Shown: positions 4,789-11,828, numbered from the stretch's first letter. The stretch is DNA of 64,000 bases from Candidatus Wolframiiraptor sinensis (GCA_023261815.1 JALNKA010000001.1:97347-161346); one strand, 5' to 3'. Numbers and translations are program-made. Notes: a model not told the origin generated them from the sequence alone.

Positions 4789-5133
4789 TCACTTCTTTTT
4801 AGGCTTCTTCACCTTGACCTCGGCGAGCGCCTCCTTCACCGGCGCGTAGATCTTAAGCCTCCTATCCCCTACGATCAGCTTAACATAGCCTTTTCCGGCG
4901 AGATCGCGGAGAACCTGCCTGGCGATCGAGATCCTTACCCCAAACTTCTCAGCAAGAAGATTAGGTGTCACGTATGGTTGATCCCTCAGGAATTCTAGAA
5001 CCTCATCGGTCGGCGGTGGGATCACGCTGGCAACAGCCTTCTCCTTAACCTTGGAGCCGGCGGCTGCTCCGCCCTCCCGCGCTCTCGCGGCCTTCTTCTC
5101 AAGCTGGCTCAAGCTCGGCTTCTTCGGCGGCAT
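4789..5133 (-). CDS. rps25e: 30S ribosomal protein S25e
   Basis: The sequence MPPKKPS...VLEFLRDQPYVTPNLLAEKFGVRISIARQVLRDL is the S25e fold. An internal ATG at 5133 is preceded by GGAGGTG. The longer annotated ORF to 5298 is an upstream extension. Confidence 0.85.
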   Translation of the reverse strand: MPPKKPSLSQLEKKAARAREGGAAAGSKVKEKAVASVIPPPTDEVLEFLRDQPYVTPNLLAEKFGVRISIARQVLRDLAGKGYVKLIVGDRRLKIYAPVKEALAEVKVKKPKKK

Positions 5134-5232
5134 GACCGCACCTCCCCGCTGGAAGAAGCCAATACTCTTCATAAATATTTTCCAAGGAGGCGGTAATAGT
5201 CTAATCCAGCCAAATATGTAATAGGCCTTGGC

Positions 5233-6063
5233 GTGAGGCTGAGGGATTACTTGGCAGAGAGCATTCGGGAGGCTCCCATCGAGCACCTCCCATCCCATGC
5301 GAAGTTAATCGATAAGGTGGCCCTCGTCAGGCTGAGGGAGGAGATTGAGGGGCTGAAGCACGAGATAGGCGAGCTCATCCTCAGATTCTATAATGCTCGA
5401 GCCGTGTATCTTGTGCGGGGCGTTGAGGGTGTTGAAAGAAGGCCCCGCCTCGAGCTGATAGCAGGCGACCCCATCCGAGAGATAACGCACCGCGAATATG
5501 GCTGCATCTTCAAGCTAGATCTCACGCAGCTGATGTTCTGCCTCGGCAACAGCTTCGAGAGATTGAGGGTGGCTGGATTGACGGGCGAGGGCGAGGTCGT
5601 TGTGGACATGTTCGCTGGCGTGGGGCAATTCGCGATACCGGTAGCGGTTCTCGGAGAGCCCGAAAAGATCTATGCCATCGAGATAAACCCGCTCGCGCAT
5701 AGATATCTCCTGGAGAACGTGCGCCTGAATGATGTGGGCGATAGGGTTGAGGCGATTCTGGGTGATTGCAGGGAGATCGCGCCGAGAATGCTTAGCGGCG
5801 CCGCCGATAGGGTCATTATGGGGTATTTCGGGGGCACGATCGAGGCGCTCCGCGCGGCGCTATCAGCTCTGAAGCCGGAGGGCGGAATAATTCACTTCCA
5901 CGAGCTCGCTAGAAGAGGCGGCGAAGAGAACCTCGTGAAAGAGTTGCTGGAAACCGCCGCGAGCCACGGGTTTCACGCGCGATTGCTATTGTGGAGGAAG
6001 GTCAAGAGCTACTCGAGGACGAGGAACCACATCGTGATAGACTTTTTCGCGGCCAGAGCTTAG
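5233..6063 (+). CDS. Trm5/Taw2(TYW2)-family SAM-dependent tRNA methyltransferase
   Basis: Has the VVDMFAGVGQFAIP motif (D-x-F-A-G-x-G) and the NP motif EINPLAHRYL of the Met-10+ / Trm5 family. Confidence 0.65.
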   Translation: MRLRDYLAESIREAPIEHLPSHAKLIDKVALVRLREEIEGLKHEIGELILRFYNARAVYLVRGVEGVERRPRLELIAGDPIREITHREYGCIFKLDLTQLMFCLGNSFERLRVAGLTGEGEVVVDMFAGVGQFAIPVAVLGEPEKIYAIEINPLAHRYLLENVRLNDVGDRVEAILGDCREIAPRMLSGAADRVIMGYFGGTIEALRAALSALKPEGGIIHFHELARRGGEENLVKELLETAASHGFHARLLLWRKVKSYSRTRNHIVIDFFAARA

Positions 6064-6223
6064 ACCGCCAAACCGCGCTAGCGGTAGAGCGGAGCCGGGA
6101 ACATCGTCCTTGCGCGGAGGTATTCTCGTGAAACTACCGAGGAGGTAATGGGCTTGAAGATGAAGCATCGCGGCAGCGTGTTCCACAATCTTTATTAATG
6201 GTGGCCATGACTTCGGATTGGTA

Positions 6224-7216
6224 ATGCGGCTTAATCTTTCCAGGAGGATTTTCATCAAGCTAGCGGGAGGATTGGCTTTAGCATCTCTGGGCTTGGGAGC
6301 GCTGGGGTATTCGCTTGGATGGTTTAGTCCTTGGGAGCAAGCAGTCTTCGAGAAAGAGAGTAGAAACACTTTGCGCGCCGATGGCGAGAGGTCTCTAGTA
6401 TCCTTTGTCAGGGGTCGAGATGCTCGTGAGATGGTGAGGGCCGCGGTAGAGATCATAGGTGGCATCGAGGGGGTCGTGAAGCCGGGATCTAGGGTCCTAA
6501 TCAAGCCTAATGTCGGGTTTAACAGGGTGGAGGCGGTAACATCGCCCGAGATATTGGGCGCGGTGATAGAGCTGGTTAAAGAGGCCGACCCGGCGGACAT
6601 AATCGTAGCCGAGAGCGCCGTTCGCGGCTACGATACATCGAGCAACTTTGATAGAGTTGGGGTAAGAGAGGTTGCCAGGGAGCTGGGCGTCCGCCTGATA
6701 GATCTAGATAAGGAGGATAGGGCTGTCAAGACTAAGATTAGGGGGAGGGTTCTTCAGGAGGTTTCAGTCTTCAAGCAAGCGCTCGATGCCGACGTCATAA
6801 TAAGCGTGCCAAAGCTCAAGAGGCATTCGCAAGCAGTAGTCACGATCTCGCTGAAGAACATGATGGGCATAATGCCGGATGATCAGAAGGGAATGTTTCA
6901 CGTTCTCGGATTGGATCAGTGCATAGCCGACCTCAACACAGCGTTCAAGCCGGATCTGGCGATAGTGGACGCGATCGAGGTCATGACGGTCAGCGGCCCC
7001 GGGATGGGCAAGATGGTCCCGGGAAACGCGGTATTGGCGAGCAGGGATCCAGTGGCATTGGATCTCGTGGCCGCGGAGTACCTATTCAAGCTCGAGGGGC
7101 ACGCGGATCCACTCAGAGCCGCGATGAATGTTCCGCACATAAGGCTGGCGGCGGAGCTCGGCGTGGGCACGAACGACATATCGAGAATAGAACTGATTAG
7201 AAGGGAGCCGGGTTGA
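6224..7216 (+). CDS. DUF362-domain protein with a twin-arginine (Tat) signal peptide
   Basis: N-terminal SRRIFIKLAGGLALASLG Tat motif, and a DUF362-like core (VLIKPNVGF...TSPEILGAVIELV...VPKLKRHS). ATG at 6224. Confidence 0.6.
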   Translation: MRLNLSRRIFIKLAGGLALASLGLGALGYSLGWFSPWEQAVFEKESRNTLRADGERSLVSFVRGRDAREMVRAAVEIIGGIEGVVKPGSRVLIKPNVGFNRVEAVTSPEILGAVIELVKEADPADIIVAESAVRGYDTSSNFDRVGVREVARELGVRLIDLDKEDRAVKTKIRGRVLQEVSVFKQALDADVIISVPKLKRHSQAVVTISLKNMMGIMPDDQKGMFHVLGLDQCIADLNTAFKPDLAIVDAIEVMTVSGPGMGKMVPGNAVLASRDPVALDLVAAEYLFKLEGHADPLRAAMNVPHIRLAAELGVGTNDISRIELIRREPG

Positions 7217-7821
7217 TCAGCCGGAGGAGCCTTCTCAGGGCGATGCTGGGAGCTCTCCTCGTGCCCCTCGCAGGGGTATCAATAGCAGCCTTGCCGAGCA
7301 GGAGGGTTGTGCGGCCCCCGGGCGCAATCGAGGAGGAGCGCTTCCTAGAGATCTGCGTTCGATGTGGAGCATGCATCGAGGCCTGCTTCAGGGATGGGCG
7401 AGGGACGCTGGAGCCATGCGGGCTTCCAGATGGCCCGCCGCTAATAGGAACCCCTAAAGTCAATCCGCTTAGAGCTCCATGTGAGGCTCTTTATGGAAAA
7501 TGCGAGAATAAGTTGCCATGTATCAGGTCCTGCCCCACGGGCGCCCTGAAGTGGGTCGAGCCGGATGAGATAAAGCTCGGGTCCGTAAAATGGAGTCCAA
7601 GGCTCTGCATCGCCTTCCTCGGAGGAACATGCCTCGTCTGCGCCGAGGTATGCCCAGTGCCAGGCGCAATAACTCCGGAGGGTAGAATCCCGATCTTCCA
7701 CCTCGATAGATGCGTGGGATGTGGGCGGTGCGTATACGCGTGTCCAGCTGATCCAAAGGCTCTAGTCCTCGTGCCGGATGGGGAGGTGAGGTATCGCTGG
7801 CGAAGAGGCTCATCAAGATAA
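7213..7821 (+). CDS. Tat-exported polyferredoxin, NapG/MauM-like
   Basis: SRRSLLRA Tat motif and four Cys clusters (CVRCGACIEAC, CIRSCP, CLVCAEVCP, CVGCGRCVYACP). The TTG start overlaps the DUF362 stop. Confidence 0.6.
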   Translation: MISRRSLLRAMLGALLVPLAGVSIAALPSRRVVRPPGAIEEERFLEICVRCGACIEACFRDGRGTLEPCGLPDGPPLIGTPKVNPLRAPCEALYGKCENKLPCIRSCPTGALKWVEPDEIKLGSVKWSPRLCIAFLGGTCLVCAEVCPVPGAITPEGRIPIFHLDRCVGCGRCVYACPADPKALVLVPDGEVRYRWRRGSSR

Positions 7822-7994
7822 ACCTGCTCATAATCGCGATTGCAATCGCCATTTATCTAGCGCTGAACCTATCGGGCATAGCGAGAGGAGCATATTGCTC
7901 GCTATCAGCCGGGGGCGTAACTTTCCTGTGCCCGCTCGGCTTTCTCCAGCGCCCCGGGCTCGCTGGGGCATCATCCTGCGCGATAATCATAGGC

Positions 7995-8588
7995 GTGGCC
8001 GCGGTATTGATGGCAATACTGCTCTTAGGGAGATTCTTCTGCGGCTGGATCTGCCCCATGAGCATAGTGCTCCGCCTCCTGGGCAGTAAAGGTGCGGGGG
8101 GTAACGGCCGCCTATACATCCCCGCATTCTCGGTGAGCCTAGCCCTCATCCTACTCGCATCATGGATCATGGGATTCCCCGTATTCTGCATCATATGCCC
8201 CATCGGCATCGTAAGCAGGCTCATAATCTCGGCGCTAAGCGGGATATTGGATATATGGGGCATACTGTGGGGGGCAGCTATCTTCACGGCCACCATTACG
8301 CTGATCAAGGCGCGCGCATGGTGCAATGGCCTATGCCCATTGGGCGCGCTCCAAACGCTTCTAAGCCCTCTCAAATTAACGAGAATAAAGGCATCCCATG
8401 AATGTAAAAAGTGCAATGCTTGTGTCGAAGCCTGCCCGCTGAAGCTCGAGATTCATGAGGATCGCAGAGCTGATCAGATGAGCTGCACCACGTGCTTGGA
8501 ATGTGTTAAAACATGCCCATTTAACGCACTTAAGCTAGTCGTGATCCGCCCCCTCTCATCAGACAAATCTGGCGCGAAGAAGGAGTAA
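7995..8588 (+). CDS. NapH/MauN-like integral-membrane 4Fe-4S protein; the 5' end is uncertain
   Basis: FCGWICP and CNGLCPLGALQ motifs plus two CxxCxxCxxxCP motifs. The reading frame stays open and hydrophobic back to about 7803 without a canonical start codon. Confidence 0.6.
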   Translation: MAAVLMAILLLGRFFCGWICPMSIVLRLLGSKGAGGNGRLYIPAFSVSLALILLASWIMGFPVFCIICPIGIVSRLIISALSGILDIWGILWGAAIFTATITLIKARAWCNGLCPLGALQTLLSPLKLTRIKASHECKKCNACVEACPLKLEIHEDRRADQMSCTTCLECVKTCPFNALKLVVIRPLSSDKSGAKKE

Positions 8589-8604
8589 TCAGCTGTTGCA
8601 AAAG

Positions 8605-8610
8605 TTTTTT
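8605..8610 (+). terminator. oligo-T tract downstream of the NapH-like gene
   Basis: A T6 run 19 nt after the stop codon, in an AT-rich spacer between convergent genes. Confidence 0.35.
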
Positions 8611-8689
8611 GGGGAGCACTTCGCAAAAATTAAAACAGCATCCTGTTGCAATAATACTTCAAATTTTCACGCGAAATTGAGGCGCGTAT

Positions 8690-9124
8690 CTAGATTATTA
8701 TGCTTGCGGCGTTGGCTATTCTGGGCCAGCGCTCCGCAGCCTCCCTCGCCACGGGCCCCTTGATCTCCGTCGCCTTGAGATCGCCCTCGGGCGTGACTAA
8801 AACCGCCGCGGTATCCTCAAACATTATCCAAGTTCCATCGGGTCTCCTGTAGGGCTTCTTCTGCCTTATTATCACGGCATGCATTGGCTTCTTCCTCAGA
8901 TCTATCGGCCCCTTCTTCACGGTAACGGATACCAAGTCTCCAACGGCCGCGCATGGATGCCTTCTCCTCCTAGTCTTGATGCCATGCACCTGTATTATCT
9001 TGAGAAGCTGGGCGCCGGAGTTATCGGCGCATGGGATGAGCGAGCCCACGTTAATGGTTCTAGGTATGTCGGGCCTTCTCTCGAGAATCCCCACGGCTGC
9101 TACGGCCCTGCTCCTCTTTGACAT
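8690..9124 (-). CDS. rpl14: 50S ribosomal protein L14
   Basis: Strong uL14 similarity across the whole protein (for example GSLIPCADNSGA, TPEGDLKATEIKGPVAREAAE). Confidence 0.9.
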   Translation of the reverse strand: MSKRSRAVAAVGILERRPDIPRTINVGSLIPCADNSGAQLLKIIQVHGIKTRRRRHPCAAVGDLVSVTVKKGPIDLRKKPMHAVIIRQKKPYRRPDGTWIMFEDTAAVLVTPEGDLKATEIKGPVAREAAERWPRIANAASIII

Positions 9125-9164
9125 GCCGCACCTCCTCCTCCAAGATCTCGGGGGCTTTTAAGGA

Positions 9165-9497
9165 TCACTTTCCCTCGAGCTTCTCGATTACCACGAAATG
9201 GACGGTCTTGCTGAGCGGCCTGCACTCCGCGATTCTCACCCTATCCCCTTCCTTAACGTCCATGCACGGCGGGAGATGGGCTGGTATATTGCTCCTCCGC
9301 CGCTCATAGCGCTTATACTTCCTAACATAGTGAAGATATTCCCTCCTGACTATCACGGTCTTCGCCATCCTCTTCTTGTGGATGACCCCCGTGAGAATGA
9401 TTCCCCTAATCTTAAGGTGGCCGTGGAATGGGCATTTCGGGTCATCGCACTCCCTCTCCGGGGGCTTAACCGGTATCCCTATGTTCCTCGCGGGCAT
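9165..9497 (-). CDS. rps17: 30S ribosomal protein S17
   Basis: The uS17 pattern ([23 protein letters not shown]...[18 protein letters not shown]). Confidence 0.9.
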
Positions 9498-9575
9498 GCT
9501 CGTATCACCCTATCCTCCATAGCGCCGGTGCTGGGGCTGACTCGGAGCAGCCTCCTAAATAACGTTTCCAGACTC

Positions 9576-9863
9576 CTACCACCTCCTCAGCCTCCTCTTC
9601 AACCTCTCCTCCGGCCTGCCGACCAGAATCCTTCCATCTACCAGAACTTTCTCCCCCGAGGGTAACTCGAATATAAACCTGTAAGCGTTCTTCGGCAGGC
9701 TCACGATCCTGCCATCATCTCTCAGCATTCTCAGCATATTCCTGGTCTCCCCGATGATCTCGCCGGCGTGCGCGAGGCCCACCCTCAGGGGCATAGCTTT
9801 GGCCCTGAGGCCCAGAAGCTCATGCCTCGGCAGATTTCTCGGGGTCAGCGTCCTAATCTTCAT
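9576..9863 (-). CDS. rnp1: RNase P protein component 1 (p29/Rpp29)
   Basis: Rpp29 signature (GEIIGETRNMLRMLRDDGRIVSLPK...VDGRILVGRPEERLK) and the conserved position directly upstream of rps17. Confidence 0.75.
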   Translation of the reverse strand: MKIRTLTPRNLPRHELLGLRAKAMPLRVGLAHAGEIIGETRNMLRMLRDDGRIVSLPKNAYRFIFELPSGEKVLVDGRILVGRPEERLKRRLRRW

Positions 9864-9886
9864 CGCGGAGAGTATGCTCAGGCAGC

Positions 9887-10609
9887 TTAAATCTCGATCG
9901 CGAGATCGGGGTTTAGGAGGATTATCGAGGAGCTCTCAGGCTCATAGGCCATCTGAACTCCTCTGACCTCGAGCCCGGCCGCATGTGCTCTCGCTATTAG
10001 ACTGCATAACGCTGGATCCGCCTCGTAGTTGAGCTTGAAGCCCCTGATATTAGGTATGGCCGCGATGAAGGCGATGATAGCCCGTGCGCCGCGCTCGACC
10101 AGCCCCATCATCTCCCCCACCTGTTTTACCGCTCTCGTGGATGGGCAGTCGGGATAAGAGGCGTAATCGCCAAGCCTGAGAGCCGCGCTCTTGAGCTCCA
10201 GGATCAAGTCCGCGCCCTCGCGTGACATCAAGTAGTCTATTCTCGCCCCAGCGAGTGGGATATTTCTTCTCGAGATCTGATAGCCCTCGAGCCATGGGAT
10301 GAGACCTCGATTAACCGCCTCCTCGAAAGCTCTCGACTGGAGGTACGTATCTACTACAGCGGCGAGCCCGTCCTCGGAGATCGCGAAAAGTCTTCTCCGA
10401 AGTTTCTCCGGCCTCACGGTCGGCGCGCAGAACCCTCTCCTCCCTCGCACGATGTACTCCAGAAGTCTCCCGGTATTCTGCAGGAATACGAGATCCTCCT
10501 GATCATCAATCTTCACCCTGATCGTAAACCTGTTCAATCTCTCGAGTATCAGGCACTCCTCTACGCCCTGTAAAACCAGTAGCCTAGAGTATTCGCGGGC
10601 GGGGCACAA
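9887..10609 (-). CDS. sfsA: SfsA-family (sugar fermentation stimulation protein) nuclease-like protein
   Basis: The SfsA N-terminal pattern (ERLNRFTIRVKI...FLQNTGRLLE) in a protein of the expected ~240 aa. Confidence 0.65.
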   Translation of the reverse strand: MCPAREYSRLLVLQGVEECLILERLNRFTIRVKIDDQEDLVFLQNTGRLLEYIVRGRRGFCAPTVRPEKLRRRLFAISEDGLAAVVDTYLQSRAFEEAVNRGLIPWLEGYQISRRNIPLAGARIDYLMSREGADLILELKSAALRLGDYASYPDCPSTRAVKQVGEMMGLVERGARAIIAFIAAIPNIRGFKLNYEADPALCSLIARAHAAGLEVRGVQMAYEPESSSIILLNPDLAIEI

Positions 10610-10619
10610 AGCCTAGCCC

Positions 10620-11828
10620 TCAAGATAATTCGAGAAGCATTTTCACCCCTTCTCTAATTCTCCGGATATCCTCCTCGCTCGCGGAGCCTTGGAATTCTAT
10701 CTTGTCAATGATCTTAAAGCCGACGCTCGCAAGCTTCTCAGAGATCTTTCTCGCGGCGGCGGGGCCCCAGCCATACGACCCTATCACGAGCACGGGCTTC
10801 TGCGGAATCTTCCTAGAGATTAAATCCACCAGATGCTCAAGCGGCGGATAAACTCCAGCTTCATACGTCGTCGCGGCGATGATTATTGCCCTCGAGTCCA
10901 TAGCATCGCTCAGTATCTCCGAGAACGGCGGCTGGCTCGAGTCGTTGAACCTGTAGAAGATCGCTCTGCCTCCCAGCCTCTCAACCTCATTCGCCGCGAT
11001 GGCCGCGGCCGCCTCAAGCAAGCGATACATGGAGCCGGTGATGATCAGGATCTTATTGCCATCGGGGCGGCCCTCAGCCAAGCTCCTGTAGTAATCGATG
11101 ATCAGCTGCGGATTCCTCCTCCAGATGAGCCCATGAGCTGGCGCGAGCATCCCTATGCTCAGCTTAAGGCTCTGAATTTTCTCTATGTTCCGGGTTATGT
11201 GCTGCCTGTAAAATCCTATTATGTTCGCGACGTATTTCCTGACGCTGGGCAGGTACTCCTTCACGACGCTTTCATCATCATCGAATATTGCTCTAGGTGT
11301 AGAATATCCTCCAAAGACATCACACGTTATCAGCGCCCTCCGGTCCGGGAGGTAGCTCATTATGGTCTCGGGCCAGTGGAGCCATGGCGTATAAATTATC
11401 TTGATCTTCTCGCCCGCCAACGCGAGCTCCTCCCCATCCTTCACGAGCCTAAATCTCGGAGCTATCCTGTAGAATGTCTCGATCATGGGCTTGGCCATGG
11501 GATGGGCTACGACCTCCGCCCTAAACCCGTTTGCCTCGAGAACTTTCGGGAGGGAGCCTGAGTGATCCGGCTCAGCATGATGAACTATCACATGCGTTAT
11601 ATCTTTCAGGTCCACGATCCCCATAATTGCCTCAATCAGGCCGTCGGCGTAGATGCTCTTCCAGCCGTCGAAGAGAACCGCGCCGCTATCCCCCACGAGT
11701 AGATACGCGTTATAAGTCACCTTCTCCGGTATACTCCAGATGCCCTCAAAATACTCGATATCCACATCATCAATTCTCAGCAGGTGAAATCCGGGCTCAA
11801 TCTCCTGAGATAAGACTCTCGAAGCCAT
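10620..11828 (-). CDS. fprA: flavodiiron protein (FprA; metallo-beta-lactamase plus flavodoxin domains)
   Basis: The diiron motif HHAEPDHSG and a C-terminal flavodoxin-like domain. Confidence 0.85.
   Translation of the reverse strand: MASRVLSQEIEPGFHLLRIDDVDIEYFEGIWSIPEKVTYNAYLLVGDSGAVLFDGWKSIYADGLIEAIMGIVDLKDITHVIVHHAEPDHSGSLPKVLEANGFRAEVVAHPMAKPMIETFYRIAPRFRLVKDGEELALAGEKIKIIYTPWLHWPETIMSYLPDRRALITCDVFGGYSTPRAIFDDDESVVKEYLPSVRKYVANIIGFYRQHITRNIEKIQSLKLSIGMLAPAHGLIWRRNPQLIIDYYRSLAEGRPDGNKILIITGSMYRLLEAAAAIAANEVERLGGRAIFYRFNDSSQPPFSEILSDAMDSRAIIIAATTYEAGVYPPLEHLVDLISRKIPQKPVLVIGSYGWGPAAARKISEKLASVGFKIIDKIEFQGSASEEDIRRIREGVKMLLELS

Follow-up and report, generated by a model that had tools for sequence, protein, structure and literature searches.

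A DUF362 protein with NapG-like and NapH-like partners in Candidatus Wolframiiraptor sinensis: a putative extracytoplasmic redox module with a candidate CTG start codon

Described NapG/NapH-type systems and the layout of the locus

The NapGH quinol dehydrogenases of the periplasmic nitrate reductases of E. coli and Wolinella succinogenes pair a ferredoxin that is exported by Tat and has four [4Fe-4S] motifs with a membrane protein of four helices (PMC5449189). The two are encoded by adjacent genes, and NapH combines two CX3CP motifs with a cytoplasmic 2x[4Fe-4S] domain in a predicted N-in/C-in topology. According to the passages of Tooke et al. (2017, PMC5449189) on NapH, NapG and polyferredoxin, a "polytopic polyferredoxin" (PFD, e.g., Q1NSB0 of delta proteobacterium MLMS-1) is a NapH-NapG fusion that is integrated by both Sec and Tat, and this fused architecture behaves as a dual Sec/Tat substrate by experiment; the paper assigns PFD no client or function, these passages do not name DUF362, and a search for papers mentioning DUF362 did not return it. 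CX3CP membrane domains of the Fer4_5 family (PF12801) together with Fe-S clusters also characterize NosGH/NosR, MauMN, RdhC/PceC and CcoG, which deliver electrons to, or maintain cofactors for, an exported enzyme (PMC5928378).

The stretch analyzed here, referred to below as the window, comprises 64,000 nt of Candidatus Wolframiiraptor sinensis (GCA_023261815.1 JALNKA010000001.1:97347-161346), and coordinates are positions within it. Three overlapping plus-strand genes occupy 6224-8588 and encode a DUF362 protein, a NapG-like ferredoxin and a NapH-like membrane protein (Table 1). The first is a clear DUF362 family member, since its match to PF04015 spans nearly the whole profile (positions 1-199 of 200) and scores 182.9 bits, where the cut-off is 24 (E=9.9e-54), and its SRRIFIK motif is followed by a hydrophobic helix of ~22 residues (model helix 7-30). 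Both this motif and SRRSLLR of the ferredoxin conform to the conserved Tat-substrate pattern, S/T-R-R-x-F-L-K and then a moderately hydrophobic h-region.

As in NapGH, a twin-arginine ferredoxin, with 16 of its 17 cysteines in four [4Fe-4S]-type motifs, adjoins a membrane protein with two CX3CP motifs and a C-terminal 2x[4Fe-4S] domain. The latter has hydrophobic segments at residues 5-23, 60-78, 115-133 and ~142-167, and by a Kyte-Doolittle scan these four segments and the charge distribution fit an N-in/C-in topology. It also matches Fer4_5, as do the Nos, Mau, Rdh/Pce and CcoG proteins. By the NCBIfam cut-offs, however, neither protein belongs to the Nap families. The best matches of the ferredoxin are NapG (NF007012, 86.7 against a cut-off of 269) and MauM/NapG (TIGR00397, 70 against 178.85), whereas the best match of the membrane protein is NapH/MauN (TIGR02163, 85.2 against 213.05; NF007013, 79.7 against 234), with weak NosR and CcoG matches also listed. 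The locus further differs from NapGH in its archaeal host, in lacking napA, napB and napD, and in its order of client, G and H with DUF362 as the client; quinol use would follow only by analogy. It differs from the Nos, Mau, dehalogenase and CcoG systems in that it encodes neither an FMN-binding domain nor a partner of the NosZ, MauA/B or dehalogenase type. In contrast to PFD, which shares its two modules, the window encodes them in two genes that overlap but are kept apart by a conserved stop codon, and a single polypeptide with twin arginines before TM5 was found neither here nor in the archaeal orthologues in which the junction was read; bacterial loci L028-L051 do encode one. The original prediction was sound in all its sequence-level statements, namely, the three genes, the twin-arginine signal of each soluble protein, the four clusters of the ferredoxin, the CGWICP and two ferredoxin motifs of the membrane protein, and the missing canonical start. 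Its "NapG/NapH" label was too strong, given scores far below the cut-offs and the lack of a NapA-type reductase among the genes called beside the trio in the syntenic relatives L001-L006.

Upstream of the trio, TTTATTAA is placed as expected from the known geometry of archaeal promoters and may act as the promoter of a leaderless or near-leaderless operon transcript. A T6 run could serve as the terminator. The convergent rpl14 gene ends at 8690, and tRNA and Rfam scans of the 64-kb window gave no match. Our preferred reading, which we consider probable, is that 6224-8588 forms a single operon of a Caldarchaeales-type (Aigarchaeota) archaeon that would encode a three-part extracytoplasmic redox module, with the NapH-like protein translated from CTG 7797.

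Table 1. Features of the DUF362/NapG-like/NapH-like locus, in window coordinates
Feature	Position	Strand	Remarks
TTTATTAA, candidate archaeal TATA box	6191..6198	+	~29 nt before ATG 6224; read from sequence
DUF362 protein, 330 aa	6224..7216 (ORF 6218/6224..7216)	+	N-terminal twin-arginine signal/anchor; LarA-fold catalytic domain (predicted), residues ~57-330
Tat motif SRRIFIK of DUF362 protein	6239..6259	+	Residues 6-12
Putative active-site stretch of DUF362, K199-R-H201 ... K211-N212 ... H226	6818..6901	+	Conserved in alignment of 34 proteins
NapG-like ferredoxin, 202 aa	7213..7821	+	TTG start overlaps DUF362 stop as TTGA
Tat motif SRRSLLR of ferredoxin	7219-7239	+	Residues 3-9
Four ferredoxin [4Fe-4S] motifs	7354-7386, 7480-7536, 7606-7656, 7711-7743	+	Cys motifs
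TGA closing frame 0 upstream	7749..7751	+	CGA in L001
GGAGGTGA, Shine-Dalgarno	7782..7789	+	Inside ferredoxin coding region, 7 nt before CTG 7797
Proposed non-canonical CTG initiation codon, NapH-like	7797..7799	+	Aligns with orthologues' TTG start
NapH-like membrane iron-sulfur protein, 263 aa if from CTG 7797	7797..8588	+	Two CX3CP motifs, C-terminal 2x[4Fe-4S] domain
NapH-like CGWICP	8040-8057	+	
NapH-like CNGLCP	8322-8339	+	
NapH-like two CxxCxxCxxxCP motifs	8403-8438, 8484-8519	+	
T6 run, candidate archaeal terminator	8605..8610	+	17 nt past NapH-like stop codon

Start of the NapH-like gene

The NapH-like frame (frame 0) is open from 7752, directly after a TGA, to 8588, yet its first 243 nt (7752-7994) contain no ATG, GTG or TTG, the first such codon being GTG 7995. 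The open frame overlaps the 3' end of the ferredoxin gene in a different frame for 70 nt (7752-7821). The earlier observation that it lacks a canonical start before GTG 7995 holds, and orthologues keep this frame open as well. Gene callers have either cut the product to 187, 197 or 234 aa or, in GenBank, over-extended it to 282 aa.

Substitution patterns among relatives show that purifying selection acts on the 66 codons before GTG 7995. These codons have a dN/dS of 0.25 to 0.32, which matches the 0.29 to 0.38 of the rest of the gene in L001 and L005, the two close relatives in which this downstream part can be aligned free of indels, and their synonymous divergence reaches a pS of 0.53 relative to L006. 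They encode TM1, half of TM2 and a conserved CPLG motif. TM1 and half of TM2 would be lost if translation began at GTG 7995, and the alignment to the NapH model begins at residue 26 of this upstream extension.

Where the window has CTG 7797, the orthologues in L002, L003, L004, L007 and L054 have TTG. The CTG is common to the window, L001, L005, L006 and L053, which form one monophyletic clade (64 to 96% identity), and it is also present in L010; in four separate assemblies (window, L001, L005 and L006) it stands without any canonical start. The codon at this site is always NTG in six lineages, whereas CTG and TTG make up only 35% of the local leucine codons. The GGAGGTGA 8-mer is identical in L001, L005 and L006, and the orthologues that start with TTG carry GAGAGGAGG instead. 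L053 alone has gained an ATG two codons downstream. Since it keeps the CTG despite this nearby ATG, conservation of the CTG is not proof of a start.

The most likely interpretation of these data is that the NapH-like gene is neither broken nor fused but begins with a rare CTG, and we infer that this CTG is itself the initiating codon. The gene would then form its own cistron, sharing 25 nt with the ferredoxin gene, and its translation would be aided by the perfect GGAGGTGA Shine-Dalgarno sequence at 7 nt and by coupling to translation of the ferredoxin gene. Genetic code table 11 includes CTG among its starts, but in those bacteria for which measurements exist CTG initiates very weakly, and a literature search for CTG starts in archaea returned no relevant report. 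As with other prokaryotic starts that are not AUG, GUG or UUG, a near-cognate NTG within an operon is preceded by a strong Shine-Dalgarno sequence; the case differs in that the CTG state appears to persist down to ~65% protein identity. Such a start would be a clean, evolutionarily persistent failure case for standard gene callers, which matters for annotation of the Thermoproteota.

Alternatively, ribosomes might initiate at ATC 7812 or ATA 7818, or might terminate and reinitiate at the ATAA overlapping the stop codon of the ferredoxin gene. Several near-cognate codons lie within 7797-7840, L053 initiates two codons past the CTG, the segment AAGATAAAC, which contains the ferredoxin TAA, is invariant in an alignment of three sequences, and AAGATAAA[CT] is read in L003, L004, L005, L006 and L007, though not in L010. 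The invariance of AAGATAAAC is, however, also explained by dual coding (...SR* in the ferredoxin and ...KIN in the NapH-like protein), no candidate but the CTG has the optimal distance of 7 nt to GGAGGTGA, and no other is homologous to the TTG of the orthologues. We regard another non-canonical start as unlikely.

It is very unlikely that the gene is N-terminally truncated or decaying in this lineage, with a start at GTG 7995 or at the "MAILLL" ATG called in L005. Downstream starts were indeed taken by gene callers in L005 (187 aa) and L006 (234 aa), and the TGA at 7749 shuts the frame, but the constraint on the 66 upstream codons and their alignment to the NapH model argue against decay, and a product beginning at 7995 would start in the middle of TM2 with its topology inverted. 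The GenBank annotation of L001, which has CGA at the 7749 site, extends the gene to an upstream GTG. We rejected this GTG as the start; the frame leading to it is shut by the TGA in the window and in L005. The C/T difference at this site is synonymous in the ferredoxin frame (GCT/GCC, Ala), which implies that frame 0 is unconstrained there.

Of the two explanations originally offered for the missing start, the non-canonical start has thus gained support, while a 1-nt error hiding a ferredoxin-NapH fusion is at odds with the conserved ferredoxin stop. Indeed, although the 70-nt overlap, the lack of a canonical start and the existence of natural NapG/NapH fusions would fit a sequencing or assembly frameshift or a programmed -1 frameshift joining both proteins in one polypeptide, we give this reading almost no credence: the ferredoxin TAA (7819-7821) is invariant in the window, L001-L007 and L054; the arrangement recurs in the four assemblies; sister lineages have an ordinary TTG and Shine-Dalgarno sequence at the same place; natural fusions in bacteria run NapH then NapG, with the twin-arginine helix as TM5, and the reverse order would put the NapH N terminus on the wrong side of the membrane; and a programmed event was rejected since 7790-7821 contains no slippery heptamer and the gene has a start of its own in orthologues.

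Conservation of the trio and its likely client

Related loci were collected with an alignment of 16 closer DUF362 sequences, which yielded a survey of 46 genome loci; an alignment of 34 DUF362 sequences had no stretch conserved enough to define them. The order DUF362, NapG-like, NapH-like is kept in Caldarchaeales, Guaymas Thermoprotei (other Thermoprotei) and Bathyarchaeia. At 16 loci of Chloroflexota and Armatimonadota, DUF362 bears the twin arginines and is directly followed by a single protein of 510 to 545 aa with the PFD-like arrangement of a NapH-like module, an RRxF transmembrane helix and a NapG-like module. The motif (S/N/G)RRx(F/Y)(I/L/V)K is retained by DUF362 orthologues in Caldarchaeales, Bathyarchaeia and some Thermoprotei and also by bacterial homologs, while DUF362 variants of Thermoproteales and Desulfurococcales are without it; the ferredoxin keeps its Tat motif in those orthologues that also have a NapH-like partner. 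Since gene order, both twin-arginine motifs and the open upstream frame persist down to ~30 to 40% identity, the arrangement is not due to chance.

A NapH-like gene, split or fused, follows DUF362 at 27 of the 32 assessable loci whose DUF362 protein has the twin arginines (RR+) and at none of the 9 loci without them (RR-). The remaining five RR+ loci have no neighboring NapH-like gene, and RR- DUF362 is paired with an RR- NapG-like protein and no NapH-like gene. L004 and L009 have tatC and a tatA-like gene immediately before the trio; in the 64-kb window, tblastn detected no TatC. All-against-all clustering of neighboring genes revealed no fourth universal component. Clade-specific neighbors include an alpha-amylase-family protein, GNAT and NAGPA in some Chloroflexia and a peptide/nickel-type ABC transporter with TldD/PmbA in one Thermoproteales MAG. 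In L001-L006, the neighbors encode ribosomal proteins, TYW2, thioredoxin-like proteins, SfsA and oxidative-stress proteins.

This survey of genomic context, which the original prediction had proposed along with a check of the Tat motif in orthologues, identifies the trio as a conserved unit in which both soluble partners have conserved Tat motifs. The accompanying idea of an uncharacterized extracytoplasmic redox system with DUF362 as client is reasonable in light of the RR+ and RR- counts, with quinol oxidation a putative trait. We found no paper describing a DUF362/NapG-like/NapH-like system in a literature search.

The trio is best read as an extracytoplasmic redox module; it does not constitute a Nap nitrate reductase. 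DUF362 would be the catalytic part, exported in the folded state by the Tat pathway and probably kept on the membrane by its uncleaved hydrophobic signal helix. The Tat-exported ferredoxin would act as a wire on the outer membrane face, and the four-helix NapH-like protein, with its two CX3CP motifs and two cytoplasmic [4Fe-4S] clusters, would connect this wire to an electron pool of quinol or reduced cytoplasmic ferredoxin. Electrons would flow, inward or outward, between the cell and a substrate outside it that meets the active site of DUF362. We infer Tat export and a physical complex, as well as which donor and substrate take part and which way the electrons run, and quinol dehydrogenase activity of the NapG-like/NapH-like pair is suggested by analogy with NapGH. 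Since the paper on Wolframiiraptor presents these archaea as fermenters with an anaerobic lifestyle and is silent on quinones, any electron source named for the chain is provisional.

A different view is that the pair is an ordinary Nap-type (or Nos/Mau-type) accessory, with a known periplasmic reductase elsewhere as its client and DUF362 as a bystander. While NapG and NapH are the best NCBIfam matches and JGI annotates orthologues as "ferredoxin-type protein NapH," the scores are about one third of the cut-offs, and the adjacency to DUF362 spans two domains of life, survives gene fusion and tracks the twin-arginine motif. Furthermore, no molybdopterin, copper or cytochrome reductase, and specifically no NapA, NapB or NapD, was found among the genes called beside the trio in L001-L006, nor does such a reductase occur among the conserved neighbor families at the other loci. 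We consider this alternative highly improbable. The link with DUF362 also suggests a likely client for the bacterial PFD, which has so far served only as a model for Sec/Tat cooperation.

LarA-like fold and candidate active site of DUF362

In the predicted model, DUF362 has the two-domain fold of LarA, and both belong to Pfam clan CL0471. Decisive support for this link comes from the fold comparison only, not from sequence: DUF362 matches PF04015 and neither PF09861 (LarA_N) nor PF21113 (LarA_C), its profile found no significant match to LarA in the PDB, its HMM detected nothing significant among 120 LarA sequences (hmmsearch), and hhalign gave no significant alignment, whether to a single LarA or to a set of aligned LarA sequences. 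The LarA protein search returned only sequences at least 77% identical and thus no diverse LarA profile. The DUF362 domain is shorter than LarA (~270 versus 424 aa).

Across 34 diverse DUF362 proteins, K199, K211, N212 and H226 are invariant, and H201 is at least 90% conserved. In LarA, Lys184 and His200 bind the cofactor, and His108 and His174 are catalytic (PMC11770544). The spacing H201-x9-K211-x14-H226 mirrors H174-x9-K184-x15-H200 of LarA, that is, its catalytic His, cofactor-tethering Lys and Ni-ligating His, although the equivalence of residues comes from a non-significant hhalign alignment (probability, 0.2%) that places H201 on H174, K211 on K184 and H226 next to H200. In the same non-significant alignment, LarA His108 lies opposite an Ala-Glu-Ser stretch with no His. 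The DUF362 domain is Cys poor, with a single Cys, and has no recognizable cofactor motif. Among the Pfam-annotated neighbors in L001-L006, there was no larB, larC or larE, and the Wolframiiraptor paper and its supplements mention neither the trio cluster nor lar genes.

LarA-family enzymes are redox-neutral racemases with no obvious need for an electron chain, and they are cytoplasmic, whereas DUF362 is predicted to be exported and is partnered with, or fused to, Fe-S proteins. One speculative possibility, which we rate as distinctly unlikely, is that DUF362 represents a second, redox-coupled branch of the LarA fold. Its cofactor, nickel-pincer-like or with another ligand, would be inserted in the cytoplasm, tethered by Lys211 and ligated by His226, and outside the cell the NapG-like/NapH-like Fe-S chain would recharge it one electron at a time. 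Insertion in the cytoplasm would explain why a Cys-poor domain is exported by Tat. If this were true, the trio and the bacterial PFD would represent a novel type of oxidoreductase acting outside the cytoplasm.

The DUF362 family is large: at E<=1e-3, a library of 1.84 billion proteins yielded 7,248 cluster representatives. Searches of the literature turned up no study on the function of DUF362 or PF04015. The locus and its relatives give the family a testable location (outside the cell, via Tat), fixed partners of the NapG/NapH type and a LarA-like His/Lys/His candidate site. Fusions of DUF362 to CBM9 and dockerin have been reported (PMC5742341), and these carbohydrate-binding and dockerin fusions hint at sugars or hydroxy-acids as possible DUF362 substrates.

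Start codon of the NapH-like gene

Three tightly packed genes lie at window positions 6224-8588 (+), and their ORFs, Pfam and NCBIfam matches, and motifs agree in every detail with the DUF362, ferredoxin, and NapH-like genes of the original prediction. The DUF362 protein begins with MRLNLSRRIFIK, followed by a hydrophobic helix of ~22 residues, and its stop codon overlaps the ferredoxin start in the sequence TTGA. The ferredoxin, whose N-terminus is MISRRSLLR, has 17 cysteines, 16 of which fall within four [4Fe-4S] motifs, while the NapH-like protein carries two CX3CP motifs (CGWICP and CNGLCP) and two CxxCxxCxxxCP motifs. The NapH-like frame, predicted to be open upstream with no ATG, GTG, or TTG, is indeed open from 7752, with GTG 7995 as its first canonical start.

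Features of the three genes in the window
Gene	Start	Stop	Strand	Length	Frame and matches
1, DUF362	ATG 6224	TGA 7216	+	330 aa	Pfam DUF362 (E=9.9e-54), matched end to end
2, NapG-like ferredoxin	TTG 7213	TAA 7821	+	202 aa	Best NCBIfam matches NapG, MauM/NapG
3, NapH-like		TAA 8588	+		Frame 0; Pfam Fer4_5; best NCBIfam matches NapH/MauN

A search with the extended NapH-like frame returned clear orthologues in Caldarchaeales (Aigarchaeota) MAGs, and we compared their contigs. In Wolframiiraptor and lineages related to it (L002, L003, L007, L054, and L004/L009), the NapH-like gene starts with TTG behind GAGAGGAGG. In the window, CTG 7797-7799 occupies this aligned column, 7 nt 3' of a perfect GGAGGTGA at 7782-7789. 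CTG without a canonical start was also found in three more assemblies, L001 (protein 96% identical), L005 (88%), and L006 (64%), and L053 (66%) retains CTG plus an ATG two codons downstream. Since these four sequences and the window form one clade in a neighbor-joining tree, the CTG state appears to be ancestral to a clade now diverged to ~65% identity, and explaining the L053 ATG as one gain is more parsimonious than assuming two losses. CTG likewise occupies this position in L010, a more distant Thermoprotei MAG. The start-site codon is NTG throughout six lineages; CTG or TTG make up only 35% of local Leu codons.

The codons upstream of GTG 7995 behave as coding sequence. For the 66 codons from 7797 to 7994, dN/dS was 0.25-0.32, compared with 0.29-0.38 for the remainder of the gene against L001 and L005, the two close relatives (an indel misaligns the remainder in L006, which is not part of this range). 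These 66 codons encode TM1, the first half of TM2, and a conserved CPLG motif, and the NapH model alignment begins at residue 26 of the extension. A product begun at GTG 7995 would have its N-terminus in the middle of TM2.

The NapH-like gene thus has a non-canonical start, the better of the two explanations originally offered given the conserved CTG and the TTG at the same column in sister lineages, and CTG 7797 is most likely the initiation codon. Initiation at ATC 7812 or ATA 7818, or re-initiation past the ferredoxin stop, is possible. The other explanation, a 1-nt error hiding a ferredoxin-NapH fusion, was rejected because the two genes are separate in all of the retrieved orthologue contigs, overlapping by 25-28 nt, with the ferredoxin TAA at the same position; such a fusion does exist in bacteria, but in the opposite order, NapH then NapG.

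Database annotations vary at this start. For L001 (L001:5001-5849; GCA_038735245.1, JAVYNS010000008.1), GenBank lists a 282-aa "4Fe-4S binding protein" from an upstream GTG, giving an 82-nt overlap with the ferredoxin gene. Since a TGA closes this frame in the window (7749-7751) and L005, and the underlying C/T difference is synonymous in the ferredoxin frame, the extension is probably an annotation artifact. The gene has been shortened to 187 aa in L005 (L005:5001-5564) and 234 aa in L006 (L006:5001-5705) by callers choosing an internal ATG, a systematic failure caused by the CTG start; both calls lose TM1, and the L005 call also loses most of TM2.

Conservation of the trio and its twin-arginine motif

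A pattern scan covering a single genome for each GTDB species yielded 46 DUF362 loci, all of whose ORFs were searched with the three window proteins. This survey of genomic context, proposed with the original prediction, recovered the DUF362, NapG-like, NapH-like order in archaea (Caldarchaeales, Guaymas Thermoprotei, and Bathyarchaeia). At 16 Chloroflexota/Armatimonadota loci, DUF362 is instead followed by one 510-545 aa protein whose NapH-like membrane part is linked through an internal (S/G)RRxF helix to a NapG-like domain. Of the 32 assessable DUF362 genes with a twin-arginine (RR) motif, 27 are followed by a split or fused NapH-like gene, compared with none of the 9 lacking the motif; these loci are not phylogenetically independent, and the pattern recurs in two domains of life, in split and fused forms alike. 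Together with the recurring gene order, this count lends comparative support to the suggested extracytoplasmic redox system, which is reasonable. No fourth universal partner was found among the DUF362 loci surveyed.

In Thermoproteales and Desulfurococcales, DUF362 and its NapG-like neighbor both lack the RR motif and there is no NapH-like gene (MAGs L012, L013, L015, L017, L018, and L023); this variant seems either to stay in the cytoplasm or to leave it by a different route. In L004/L009, the trio is immediately preceded by tatC and a tatA-like gene (L004:1200-2318), the latter encoding 81 aa with a TM helix and an amphipathic helix, followed by a 49-aa protein that carries a GRRKFL motif of its own and one hydrophobic helix and has no match in Pfam. 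In Candidatus Wolframiiraptor gerlachensis (L002:3439-4370, identical to L011; JAJPCT020000018.1), DUF362 is split into ORFs of 103 and 202 aa, with the ferredoxin and NapH-like genes intact; the split reflects a frameshift error or else a genuine pseudogene. At L052:5707-8127, in a Bathyarchaeota MAG, DUF362 is broken into short ORF pieces, the only traces of the NapG-like and NapH-like genes are short, weakly matching ORFs, and the locus looks like a decayed copy of the trio.

Fold of DUF362 and proposed mechanism

LarA-family enzymes are nickel-pincer-nucleotide racemases. A confident AlphaFold2 model of DUF362 (pLDDT 89.8, 34 homologues) gave LarA superfamily proteins as its best 19 Foldseek matches in the PDB, and the model has no strong structural relatives besides LarA-family enzymes. 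DUF362 and LarA_N belong to the same Pfam clan; DUF362 has the LarA fold, yet by sequence it is not a member of the LarA families, and it serves only as an outgroup in the LarA literature (PMC11770544). Diverse DUF362 proteins share invariant K94-P95, K199, K211-N212, H226, and several Asp residues, with N96 and H201 at least 90% conserved. The spacing H201-x9-K211-x14-H226 resembles H174-x9-K184-x15-H200 of LarA, in which H174 is the catalytic His, K184 tethers the cofactor, and H200 ligates nickel (PMC11770544). hhalign sets these residues in register, in an alignment that is not statistically significant, and DUF362 has no counterpart of LarA His108. Loigolactobacillus LarA proteins (P0245-P0247), genuine nickel-dependent lactate racemases, have a weak precomputed PF04015 (DUF362) match besides their LarA domains, which points independently to a DUF362-LarA relationship. 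The DUF362 domain has one Cys and no Fe-S motif, yet the protein bears the RR motif of a folded-protein export route, which would fit a cofactor loaded in the cytoplasm.

Both the DUF362 enzyme and the four-cluster ferredoxin would leave the cytoplasm via the Tat pathway. DUF362 would probably remain anchored through a signal helix that is not cleaved, and in several orthologues this helix is followed by a Pro/Thr-rich linker. The ferredoxin would dock onto the NapH-like protein, whose own clusters would lie on the cytoplasmic side; an N-in/C-in topology is predicted for this protein, as reported for E. coli NapH (PMC5449189). Electrons could then move between a cellular pool (quinol or reduced ferredoxin) and a substrate outside the cell, at the DUF362 site.

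By analogy, the trio would work like NapGH from outside that family, since its NapG-like and NapH-like scores each reach about a third of the respective cut-offs and no NapA was found around the trio in L001-L006. The 510-545 aa bacterial protein is the polytopic polyferredoxin, of which the window pair is the split counterpart; the passages of Tooke et al. (PMC5449189) that show its integration by Sec plus Tat and describe it as a NapH-NapG fusion do not name its client. The proposed LarA-fold client of a NapGH-type electron module is previously unreported, and the start codon is unusual; the large DUF362 family and an orphan membrane polyferredoxin become directly testable.

Neighboring genes

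In the Thermoproteales MAG L012 (L012:1-5630 and 7504-10237), the RR-less DUF362/ferredoxin pair is flanked on one side by a complete Opp/Dpp/Nik-type ABC transporter (SBP_bac_5, two permeases, and two ATPases) and on the other by TldD/PmbA; the proximity of a peptide/nickel-type transporter to a LarA-fold protein may be either coincidental or meaningful. Seven Chloroflexia MAGs (L035, L038, L040-L042, L049, and L051) have a ~930-955 aa alpha-amylase-family protein upstream of RR-bearing DUF362 and a NAGPA-type phosphodiester glycosidase downstream; the polyferredoxin is absent at L040-L042. These neighbors and the published DUF362-CBM9-dockerin fusions (PMC5742341) hint at a carbohydrate link.

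In the window, the ribosomal S25e ORF (4789-5298, -) is 169 aa from its first ATG, compared with 114-118 aa in relatives, probably an artifact of mechanical ORF listing. In the region 8690-11828 (-), syntenic in L001, L002, and L006, a ribosomal-protein cluster (L14, S17, and RNase P p29) abuts the trio. Beyond this cluster lie SfsA and a series of oxygen-defense genes encoding a flavodiiron-type ODP protein, rubrerythrin/ferritin, and peroxiredoxin, joined by desulfoferrodoxin in L002 and L006, and a rubrerythrin-like ORF abuts DUF362 in L006.
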